Below are positions 1-3,000 of a stretch of 64,000 nt of DNA, piece by piece. The stretch's first letter is position 1. Every line of letters starts with the position of its first letter. The DNA is from Escherichia coli (GTDB taxonomy: Bacteria; Pseudomonadota; Gammaproteobacteria; Enterobacterales; Enterobacteriaceae), in assembly GCF_045037415.1 (NCBI RefSeq), contig NZ_CP173438.1; one strand, written 5' to 3'. The position numbers were made by a program.

Positions 1-3000
1 CCCGGTTGTGACTGCAACACCCGCTGAGAATTATTGTTTATCTGGTTTTCTAAATGCTGTTGTTGCAGCTGCGTTTGCGTTTTCAGTTGCTGGTTCAGCA
101 TCCCTTTTTGCTGAATTTGCTGCGTCTGCATTTGAGTTTGCATCCGCTGCTGGCTGGGGATCTGATATCCCGGCTGGTTAGGGTTGTTCAGAGTATTAAT
201 GGGCTGTGCAAAGCCGACAAACGGCAGGAGTGCCGTCAAAAGCAGAAGTCGTTTCATCGCGTATCCTCCTCTGAAGATATTCTTTAAGTTTACTCGCTTC
301 CCGGCAAAACGATGATTAATTCAGAGTTATATACCAGGCTTAGCTGGGGTTGCCCCTTAATCTCTGGAGAATAACGATGATAAAACCGACGTTTTTACGC
401 CGGGTGGCCATTGCTGCTCTGCTCACAGGAAGTTGTTTTAGTACGGTAGCCGCGCCTCCTGTTTCTTATGGTGTGGAGGAAGATGTCTTCCATCCGGTAC
501 GCGCGAAACAAGGGATGGTGGCGTCTGTAGATGTTACTGCCACTCAGGTGGGAGTGGATATCCTCAAGGAGGGCGGGAATGCCGTTGATGCTGCCGTGGC
601 GGTGGGCTACGCGCTGGCGGTAACGCATCCTCAGGCAGGGAATCTGGGCGGCGGTGGTTTTATGCTGATCCGCTCGAAAAATGGCAATACCACGGCTATC
701 GATTTCCGCGAAATGGCACCCGCCAAAGCGACCCGCGATATGTTCCTCGATGATCAGGGCAACACGGACAGCAAAAAATCACTCACTTCGCATCTGGCTT
801 CCGGCACACCCGGTACGGTAGCGGGTTTCTCGTTGGCGCTGGATAAATACGGCACCATGCCGTTGAATAAAGTGGTGCAACCGGCGTTTAAACTGGCACG
901 CGATGGTTTTATCGTTAACGACGCGCTGGCTGACGATCTCAAAACCTACGGCAGTGAAGTGCTGCCGAACCACGAAAACAGCAAAGCTATCTTCTGGAAA
1001 GAGGGCGAACCGCTGAAAAAGGGCGACAAGCTGGTGCAGGCGAACCTGGCAAAGAGCCTGGAGATGATTGCCGAAAACGGCCCGGATGAATTCTACAAAG
1101 GCACGATAGCGGAACAGATTGCCCAGGAGATGCAGAAAAACGGTGGCTTGATCAGCAAAGAAGATTTAGCGGCATATAAAGCGGTCGAACGCACACCGAT
1201 AAGCGGCGATTATCGCGGGTATCAGGTTTACTCCATGCCACCGCCATCTTCCGGCGGTATTCATATCGTACAAATCCTCAATATTCTGGAAAACTTCGAT
1301 ATGCAGAAGTACGGCTTTGGCAGCGCCGACGCGATGCAAATCATGGCAGAAGCTGAGAAATACGCCTACGCCGACCGCTCGGAATATCTTGGCGACCCGG
1401 ATTTTGTCAAAGTACCGTGGCAGGCGCTGACCAATAAAGCCTATGCCAAATCTATTGCCGATCAAATCGATATCAATAAAGCGAAGCCATCCAGCGAAAT
1501 TCGTCCTGGCAAGCTTGCGCCTTATGAGAGTAATCAAACTACCCATTACTCAGTAGTGGATAAAGACGGTAACGCCGTGGCGGTGACCTATACACTGAAC
1601 ACCACCTTCGGTACGGGCATTGTCGCGGGCGAGAGCGGTATTTTGCTCAATAACCAGATGGATGATTTCTCCGCCAAACCAAGCGTACCGAACGTTTACG
1701 GGCTGGTGGGCGGCGATGCCAACGCCGTCGGGCCGAATAAACGCCCGCTGTCGTCGATGTCACCAACCATTGTGGTCAAGGATGGTAAAACCTGGCTGGT
1801 CACCGGAAGCCCAGGCGGTAGCCGGATTATCACCACTGTGCTGCAAATGGTGGTGAATAGCATCGATTATGGAATGAACGTCGCCGAAGCGACCAATGCG
1901 CCGCGTTTCCACCATCAGTGGTTGCCGGACGAGCTGCGTGTCGAAAAAGGGTTTAGCCCGGATACGATCAAGCTGCTGGAAGCAAAAGGTCAGAAAGTGG
2001 CGCTGAAAGAGGCGATGGGCAGTACACAAAGCATTATGGTTGGGCCGGACGGTGAGCTGTACGGTGCATCCGACCCGCGCTCGGTGGATGATTTAACGGC
2101 GGGGTATTAATATCTTAAGCCCTCTCCCGGTAGGTGAGGGCTTAAATGACAAACGTAGATTGCAAATTCTCTATTTCACACGCGCCATATAATACGCATC
2201 GACATATTCACCGTTTCGTAATGCGTACTTCTTGCCAGTCCCTTCAATCTCAAAGCCAAATTTTTTATAGACCTTAATTGCTGGCGCGTTATCGACGAAC
2301 ACCGTTAGCTCGATACGATCTACCCGCAACCAGTTGTCGCACATTTCAATCATCTCTCGCATCAGGGCGCTGGCGACGCCGCGGTTCTTCCAACGGGAGT
2401 CGACACAGATACCAAAATCGGCAACATGACTGCGGCGTGGGCGTTGTTGCACGTCAATGGTGAGATGGCCTACGACGATTCCATCAATACAGGCGACTAA
2501 CTGCTTGATGCCAGGGCGAGCGGTGAGTCGTTCCAGCCACATTTGTTCTGAAGGATGAGGCACCTGTAGCGTGTTGTAATACACCTCCGGCTGGGCGTGA
2601 ATCTGCCTGATGGCCTCGTAATCGCGTGTTTCTGCGTGGCGTATTACTATCTCACTCATTCCTTTGTCCTCTTTGGGGTAAATGTCCCTTTCAACATCAT
2701 TGACTTTCAAATGCGAGTCAAATGCATTTTTTTGCAAAAAGTGTTGGACAAGTGCGAATGAGAATGATTATTATTGTCTCGCGATCAGGAAGACCCTCGC
2801 GGAGAACCTGAAAGCACGACATTGCTCACATTGCTTCCAGTATTACTTAGCCAGCCGGGTGCTGGCTTTTTTTTTGATCTTTCGTTCTCAATTTATCCTC
2901 GGGAAGTGCTTGTGTTCGTTATGCGCACTCCAGTAGGAACCACGTCCGCTTTGCGCTAAGGTGTAAATAACCACCTTAAAAAGGACGAAATCATGGTCAT

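Follow-up and report, generated by a model that had tools for sequence, protein, structure and literature searches.

An ordinary ryhB gene with its Fur-box promoter between yhhY and yhhX in a 64,000-nucleotide stretch of Escherichia coli DNA

Introduction

Relatives of the small RNA RyhB of Escherichia coli include RyhB-1 and RyhB-2 of Salmonella and Yersinia and the RyhB of Vibrio. PrrF1 and PrrF2 of Pseudomonas are functional analogues, Fur-repressed and lowering the mRNAs for iron-containing proteins, but they are unrelated to RyhB in sequence and belong to a different Rfam family. The original description of ryhB reportedly gave an RNA of 90 nt, together with the original drawing of its Fur box, and both are also relayed by later citing papers. 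Elsewhere RyhB is described as an RNA of 95 nt (PMC4509938). Its promoter is repressed by Fur, depletion of Fe2+ induces it, and the RNA regulates translation of the mRNAs of iron-binding proteins through base pairing (PMC5558911).

A parallel in gene arrangement is provided by sgrS-setA where, as in ryhB-yhhX, an sRNA gene with an intrinsic terminator lies directly ahead of a protein gene in the same orientation. Measured read-through amounts to about 50% at the sgrS terminator compared with about 20% at that of ryhB (PMC4509938). The sgrS and setA genes are co-transcribed, whereas for ryhB, which 'seems to be co-transcribed with yhhX', co-transcription is stated in the same work as not experimentally shown (PMC4509938).

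Here we describe the locus at positions 2745-2875 of a window, by which we mean the whole stretch of 64,000 nucleotides of E. coli DNA that was analysed. The best explanation of this locus is that it is an ordinary E. coli ryhB with its promoter, specifying a Fur-repressed, iron-sparing sRNA (probability about 0.98), and no observation of substance speaks against it. It is an already known gene and neither a new member of the family nor a variant. With K-12 RyhB (RF00057, b4451) it shares the 95-nt sequence, the promoter, the position relative to yhhY and yhhX, the Fur box over the -10 element, the complementarity to sodB and the nine-U terminator, and there is no difference within the gene. 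With the RyhB of other gamma-proteobacteria it shares an identical 23-nt core, an upstream Fur box and an Hfq-type terminator, but the 5' domains of those RNAs are their own in both sequence and length, and only one copy is present in E. coli. What was observed directly in the present analysis is the identity of the locus, its anatomy, its conservation and its complementarity to sodB.

Results and Discussion

Identity, boundaries and copy number

Scanning the window against all 4227 Rfam families yielded a sole RNA match at gathering level in the 64 kb, to RF00057 (RyhB) at 2810-2874 (+). This match covers the full model (1-67) and scores 83.1 bits, compared to a gathering score of 55, with an E value of 3.6e-14. 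An earlier note on this DNA, made from the sequence alone, had placed RyhB and its Fur box at 2756-2875; a score 28 bits above the gathering score upholds the identification as RyhB. Since the model spans the 3' two-thirds of the RNA and lacks the remaining third, the 5' boundary was set from the curated record of E. coli K-12 MG1655 and not from Rfam. Window positions 2781-2875 (+) are 100% identical to ncRNA b4451 of that strain (ryhB, formerly SraI, 95 nt; 3580922-3581016, minus strand, flanked by yhhX and yhhY), and these positions are taken as the ryhB gene in its 95-nt annotated form.

The identity is not confined to the gene. The intergenic region upstream, promoter included, is also 100% identical to K-12 all the way back to yhhY, and the only intergenic differences from that strain are one substitution and a 1-nt indel, lying around 25-30 nt downstream of the terminator. 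Judged by this identity, the gene, promoter, operator and terminator are intact and the same as those of the characterised K-12 allele. The end given in the earlier note, 2875, coincides with the final T of the T9 tract, where the 95-nt form stops, while its start, 2756, falls near the upstream limit of the Fur-box cluster, 1-4 nt from each register. Its description of a 90-nt RyhB with a terminator is right as to the terminator but not as to the length, the curated record giving 95 nt; a 90-nt form would end at 2870.

Of 5426 complete E. coli genomes, 5424 carry promoter and ryhB together, 5386 of them at an identity of at least 99%, and the median number of ryhB copies per genome is one. The window contains the 23-nt core, GACATTGCTCACATTGCTTCCAG, once against 0.00 expected, and a search for this core with up to 3 mismatches found no second RyhB copy in the 64 kb. 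These figures bear on the idea that the locus might be a decayed or silent ryhB copy, for example a paralogue of the RyhB-2 kind known from Salmonella and Yersinia. The same core is indeed found at two loci in many Enterobacterales, and the second copies in relatives are unlinked to yhhY or yhhX. The present locus, on the other hand, occupies the orthologous position between yhhY and yhhX, is the single copy of the window in a species with a median of one per genome and, promoter included, has 100% identity to the functional K-12 gene. By that sequence identity a decayed copy is effectively refuted.

Conservation across relatives

The 23-nt core was found, without mismatch, in at least 120 loci from Enterobacterales, Vibrionales and Aeromonadales. 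In 102 of the 114 loci having enough flanking sequence, the 110 nt preceding the core contain a Fur match of at least 14/19, compared to 2 of 202 random 110-nt segments drawn from the same loci as a control. The gene yhhY is divergent upstream of ryhB in 25 of the fetched loci, and yhhX is downstream in 15.

Alignment was made of 26 yhhY-linked, orthologous loci, ranging from Escherichia albertii to Yersinia, Serratia, Mixta and Pantoea. Conservation among these is distributed very unevenly along the locus. Hardly any change is seen in the Fur box; the terminator stem, GCCAGC/GCUGGC, is constant apart from one compensatory change, with varying loops; and the U-tract is invariant. The 5' domain, by contrast, differs among the 26 loci in both sequence and length.

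Promoter and Fur box

A single sigma-70-like site, with 10 of 12 matches and an 18-nt spacer, was found in 2600-3000, and this is the ryhB promoter. Its -35 hexamer, TGGACA, is at 2745-2750 (+), the final CA being invariant across the 26 orthologous loci. The -10 hexamer, TATTAT, is at 2769-2774 (+), inside the Fur box and at -12 to -7 as counted from the annotated 5' end at 2781.

Fur sites were sought on both strands using the 19-bp consensus GATAATGATAATCATTATC, by means of consensus-match counts with first-order Markov controls, and site strengths were also taken from published information-theory values. The best match to the consensus in the whole window is 2760-2778 (16/19), which overlaps the ryhB -10 element, and a second match at 2754-2772 (14/19) is shifted 6 nt upstream of it. 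These overlapping 19-mers make up a cluster at 2754-2778, to which no strand is assigned, covering the promoter spacer and the -10 element and extending up to -3. Matches of at least 15/19 number one in the window, against 0.18 expected from first-order Markov simulations. As predicted from the sequence, a repressor bound here would act by occlusion, the box having the classical geometry for it.

For the ryhB sequence of K-12, which is identical, four overlapping Fur sites over 31 bp have been described (Chen et al. 2007, PMC2189734). The strongest of these, at 25.2 bits, is centred at -15 and was confirmed by gel shift, and it ranks among the strongest Fur sites of the genome (PMC2189734). 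Its published centre corresponds to window position 2766. No other site in the window matches the consensus better than the upstream Fur box that the earlier note had recognised, and for an identical sequence there is published gel-shift confirmation.

RNA domains, folding and terminator

The RNA begins with a variable stem-loop domain at 2781-2815 (+), outside the Rfam model, in which 2781-2789 pairs with 2807-2815 and encloses a small inner hairpin. This structure was derived by RNAalifold from 18 Enterobacteriaceae sequences. Its helix is 89.6% paired, the tested structure has 92.8% of cells paired, compared to 22-51% with slid partners, and four pairs show changes on both sides. Support for the 5' stem is modest, the structure having been derived from a subset of the same sequences on which it was tested.

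Downstream lies the single-stranded core, the target-pairing region, at 2814-2843 (+), which is invariant in the 26 orthologous loci. The A/U-rich stretch AGUAUUACUU at 2839-2848 (+), just 5' of the terminator, is partly conserved. By analogy with the published Hfq-binding module of sRNAs (PMC4509938, PMC5558911), this stretch would be the internal Hfq contact.

The Rho-independent terminator occupies 2849-2875 (+), with a hairpin at 2849-2867 and a T9 tract at 2867-2875. The hairpin has a 7-bp stem including five G-C pairs and a 5-nt loop and, with its nine T's, forms the only terminator-like site in 2600-3000. The tract is longer than the minimum of seven T residues given for the Hfq-binding 3' end of class I sRNAs (PMC5558911). 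Published values for the RyhB terminator are a 9-U tail, a hairpin free energy of -10.7 kcal/mol and termination of about 80%, an efficiency that increases under iron stress (PMC4509938).

Covariation across core and terminator is restricted to one compensatory change, from A-U to U-A, in the terminator stem; there is almost no such signal because the columns concerned are invariant. The single-sequence fold of ryhB is no more stable than that of shuffled sequences (z = -0.67), a result that is uninformative.

Overlapping open reading frames

The sampled RefSeq/PGAP records of E. coli carry no annotated feature at the place of ryhB. With a 60-aa cut-off, exactly two ORFs lie over the gene, at 2682-2936 (84 aa) and 2774-2959 (61 aa), both on the plus strand. 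Could the locus encode one or two small proteins, instead of or besides an RNA? Both frames exist mechanically, but each starts upstream of the mapped transcription start at 2781 and neither has a Pfam match (E up to 1). The aligned frames of 2682-2936 and 2774-2959 contain stops in 14 and 13, respectively, of the 26 orthologous loci, and indels of 1-2 nt switch the frame between close relatives. In addition, conservation falls into blocks, among them an invariant 30-nt core, and is without codon periodicity. Small proteins are accordingly a very improbable product of the locus. As candidates for coding ORFs over ryhB, these two and a third at 2718-2822 (-) were rejected, none of the three having a Pfam match. 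The earlier note's dismissal of the two plus-strand ORFs as spurious is thereby borne out, and its remark that RyhB was missed by the ORF track is true, as it would be for any non-coding gene.

Pairing with sodB and search for targets

RyhB nucleotides 38-46 (window 2818-2826, GACAUUGCU) are a perfect 9-nt complement of positions -4 to +5 of sodB, spanning the start codon of the K-12 sodB gene. Targets within the window were sought with RNAduplex by comparing the core with the region from -40 to +20 of 58 long ORFs. The scores failed to discriminate the true target sodB, at -18.0 kcal/mol, from unrelated ORFs, which reached as low as -20.5 kcal/mol; among the latter were ORFs of 711 aa (61054-58919), 694 aa (at 36339) and 477 aa (at 19062). 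A full-length duplexfold of RyhB with sodB was discarded, as intramolecular structure is ignored.

Proposed mechanism

The published properties of the K-12 gene may, given its 100% sequence identity, be carried over to the present locus. They comprise binding by Hfq, induction when iron is limiting, and lowered levels of sodB, sdh and other targets, with decay of the target mRNAs. Fur binding, iron regulation, Hfq dependence and target fate, as set out below, thus draw on published work on the identical K-12 sequence and are expected to apply here.

When iron is sufficient, Fe2+-Fur would sit on 2754-2778 and block RNA polymerase, because the cluster overlaps the -10 hexamer and reaches -3. 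When iron is scarce, Fur would depart and transcription would begin at 2781, ending at the hairpin and T9 tract (2849-2875) to give an RNA of 90-95 nt. Hfq would then bind RyhB via the 3' U-tail and the A/U-rich stretch ahead of the hairpin. The core (2814-2843) would pair with mRNAs encoding iron-using proteins that are not essential, in the regions where translation is initiated, as exemplified by nucleotides 38-46 of RyhB on positions -4 to +5 of sodB. Such pairing would lead to a block of translation and coupled degradation of the mRNA, with the effect that iron is spared. Around one fifth of transcripts would pass the terminator and probably extend Fur control to yhhX.

Neighbourhood and probable read-through into yhhX

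Annotation of the neighbours was taken, in window coordinates, from NZ_AP018784.2, a 100%-identical E. coli chromosome. It gives ggt (377-2110, +), yhhY, an N-acetyltransferase gene (2171-2659, -), yhhX, a putative oxidoreductase gene (2993-4030, +), yhhW (4153-4848, +) and gntR (4941-5936, +). The position of ryhB between yhhY, its divergent upstream neighbour, and yhhX, its co-oriented downstream neighbour, had been proposed earlier and agrees with this annotation. Beyond yhhY, the window is without the yhhZ-yrhA-IS1E-yrhB insert of K-12.

Between the ryhB terminator and yhhX (2876-2992) no promoter-like site was found besides the ryhB promoter upstream. Among the fetched loci the distance separating ryhB from yhhX varies, with 39 nt at one extreme and over 1 kb at the other. 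The yhhX ATG follows the RyhB U-tract after only about 39 nt in Lelliottia nimipressuralis (L082) and in an Enterobacter MAG (L040), a gap so short that there is no room for a separate promoter after the terminator; in both, the ATG is preceded by ACCTTAAAAAGGAC, the same motif as in the window. Published work shows that iron depletion raises yhhX and that the rise is lost on deleting ryhB with its promoter (PMC8896160).

It is therefore probable that yhhX is co-transcribed via read-through of the ryhB terminator, an idea already present in the literature. Such co-transcription adds to the sRNA function without taking its place. Going a step further, the ryhB promoter and terminator may constitute a single Fur-controlled unit with two outputs, terminated transcripts yielding RyhB and read-through transcripts yielding yhhX mRNA. 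We put this forward tentatively, at close to even odds. The gap of about 39 nt in L040 and L082 offers a new comparative hint in its favour.

The Fur site is said to have been read originally, by Vassinova and Kozyrev in 2000, as serving yhhX, and the emphasis could be reversed in that sense: the Fur promoter would mainly serve yhhX, and RyhB would be a leader or attenuator of the yhhX mRNA. The co-orientation of the two genes in 15 fetched loci, the lack of any other promoter-like site in 2876-2992, the short gap in L040 and L082, the read-through of about 20% with its accompanying remark on co-transcription (PMC4509938) and the loss of the yhhX iron response without ryhB and its promoter (PMC8896160) are all in keeping with such a role. 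Against it, some 80% of transcripts terminate, and more do so under iron stress; Vibrio, Aeromonas and second copies unlinked to yhhX retain both the core and the Hfq-type terminator; and the ryhB-yhhX spacing is far from constant. We consider a leader or attenuator role possible, with the odds leaning against it. RyhB as an sRNA in its own right, with yhhX probably reached by read-through, remains our preferred reading.

The predicted feoABC Fur site

The earlier note had also pointed to a Fur box upstream of feoABC, at 45918-45936, and had concluded that the window holds two Fur-controlled iron-homeostasis loci. The first gene of the operon, feoA, is at 45581-45808 (-); its translation is the full 75-aa FeoA and aligns with K-12 b3408. 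The proposed site is 108-128 nt upstream of the feoA ATG at 45808 (-). At this position the consensus scan gave two overlapping 19-mers, 45916-45934 and 45922-45940, each matching at 13/19, which together form the proximal predicted Fur-box cluster of the feoABC promoter (45916-45940, no strand assigned). Matches of 13/19 number 15 in the window against 7.6 expected, and the feo match taken alone is not above chance.

To match current K-12 numbering, the published coordinates of the predicted feoA Fur sites were moved by +1977, the offset that the ryhB coordinates give. The predicted sites then map to window centres 45929 (13.4 bits), 45935 (10.9 bits) and 45988 (10.5 bits). K-12 has the same flanking 25-mers at the feo Fur sites. 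Fur binds the feoA region in vivo, with no footprint existing (PMC2189734). The site of the earlier note hence coincides with a published predicted cluster, weak as its sequence match is (13/19). That the window holds two Fur-controlled loci is supported, the feo part of the statement resting on the literature and not on the strength of the sequence match.

Conclusions

RyhB is a central regulator of the bacterial iron economy that is invisible to ORF-based tracks, and pipelines built on ORFs should add a covariance-model pass. In that respect the locus described here matters for annotation only, its biology not being new. That Fur may control yhhX as well, by way of read-through, is a minor point. 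If true, it would make YhhX, an uncharacterised oxidoreductase, a hidden member of the Fur regulon, induced by iron starvation and dosed by the terminator of ryhB.

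ryhB and its annotation across Escherichia coli

The ryhB locus is close to universal in E. coli: no match was found in only 2 of the 5426 complete genomes scanned, and a few genomes matched it at two to three places. These exceptions may represent true deletions and duplications or artefacts of assembly. Its annotation is another matter. Twelve E. coli records annotated by RefSeq/PGAP (H11-H22), sampled across the ranking, were inspected for anything annotated over ryhB and its promoter (window 2745-2880), and none of the 12 had such a feature. Among the records compared, the ncRNA b4451 is listed only by the curated K-12 record, and automated annotation of E. 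coli appears to omit this sRNA systematically.

Flanking differences from K-12

Within the intergenic region between yhhY and yhhX, the window departs from K-12 only by a single substitution and an indel of 1 nt, at window positions ~2899-2904, both of which fall between the ryhB terminator and yhhX. A larger difference lies on the far side of yhhY. There K-12 carries yhhZ, yrhA and IS1E, an insert estimated from ggt coordinates at ~3.4 kb, whereas the window has none of these between ggt and yhhY, the two stop codons being separated by only ~60 nt (2111-2170). In other records the annotation of YhhZ combines an Hcp/TssD tube protein and an HNH endonuclease part. Since yhhZ is present in 3806 of the 5426 complete E. 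coli genomes, the window belongs to the roughly 30% of the species that are without it.

In the region between yhgF and feoA, the proximal feo promoter and its cluster of Fur boxes are almost identical in the window and K-12. In the distal part, on the yhgF side and a long way from feoA (~46040-46260), substitutions cluster near 46040-46050 and the ~60 nt nearest yhgF are essentially unalignable. A hairpin followed by a run of T residues near 46147-46170 looks like a candidate terminator of yhgF.

Scanning the window with the Fur consensus yielded three further matches at 14 of 19 positions at 38581-38599, 38932-38950 and 43999-44017, a score for which chance alone predicts 1.2 matches per window. 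By its coordinates, the last of these falls within the feoB coding region (~43243-45564, minus strand).

The ryhB-yhhX spacer in other species

In two of the loci containing the exact 23-nt RyhB core, those of an Enterobacter MAG (L040, 4803-4938) and Lelliottia nimipressuralis (L082, 4830-4694, minus strand), the yhhX ATG lies ~39 nt 3' of the RyhB U-tract. So short a gap argues for an obligatory co-transcription of ryhB and yhhX in these species; in the remaining loci the spacing reaches more than 1 kb. In both L040 and L082 the ATG is preceded by the motif ACCTTAAAAAGGAC, which is shared with window positions 2972-2985. Part of this motif forms the 3' arm of an inverted repeat in the window (AAGGTG ... 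CACCTT, 2957-2976; 6-bp stem, 8-nt loop), which immediately precedes the AGGA ribosome-binding site of yhhX (~2982-2985) and may influence translation of that gene; the 3' arm is kept in both species.

Paired RyhB-core loci

Of the loci L003-L122, the first 80 listed include at least 25 species in which the same 23-nt core is found unchanged at two separate loci, examples coming from Yersinia, Photorhabdus, Xenorhabdus, Proteus, Morganella, Pantoea, Mixta, Enterobacter, Lelliottia and Pluralibacter. In such species, linkage to yhhY is seen at just one of the two loci. E. coli has one ryhB copy. Paralogy of RyhB-1 and RyhB-2 is already known, and the paired loci are consistent with it.
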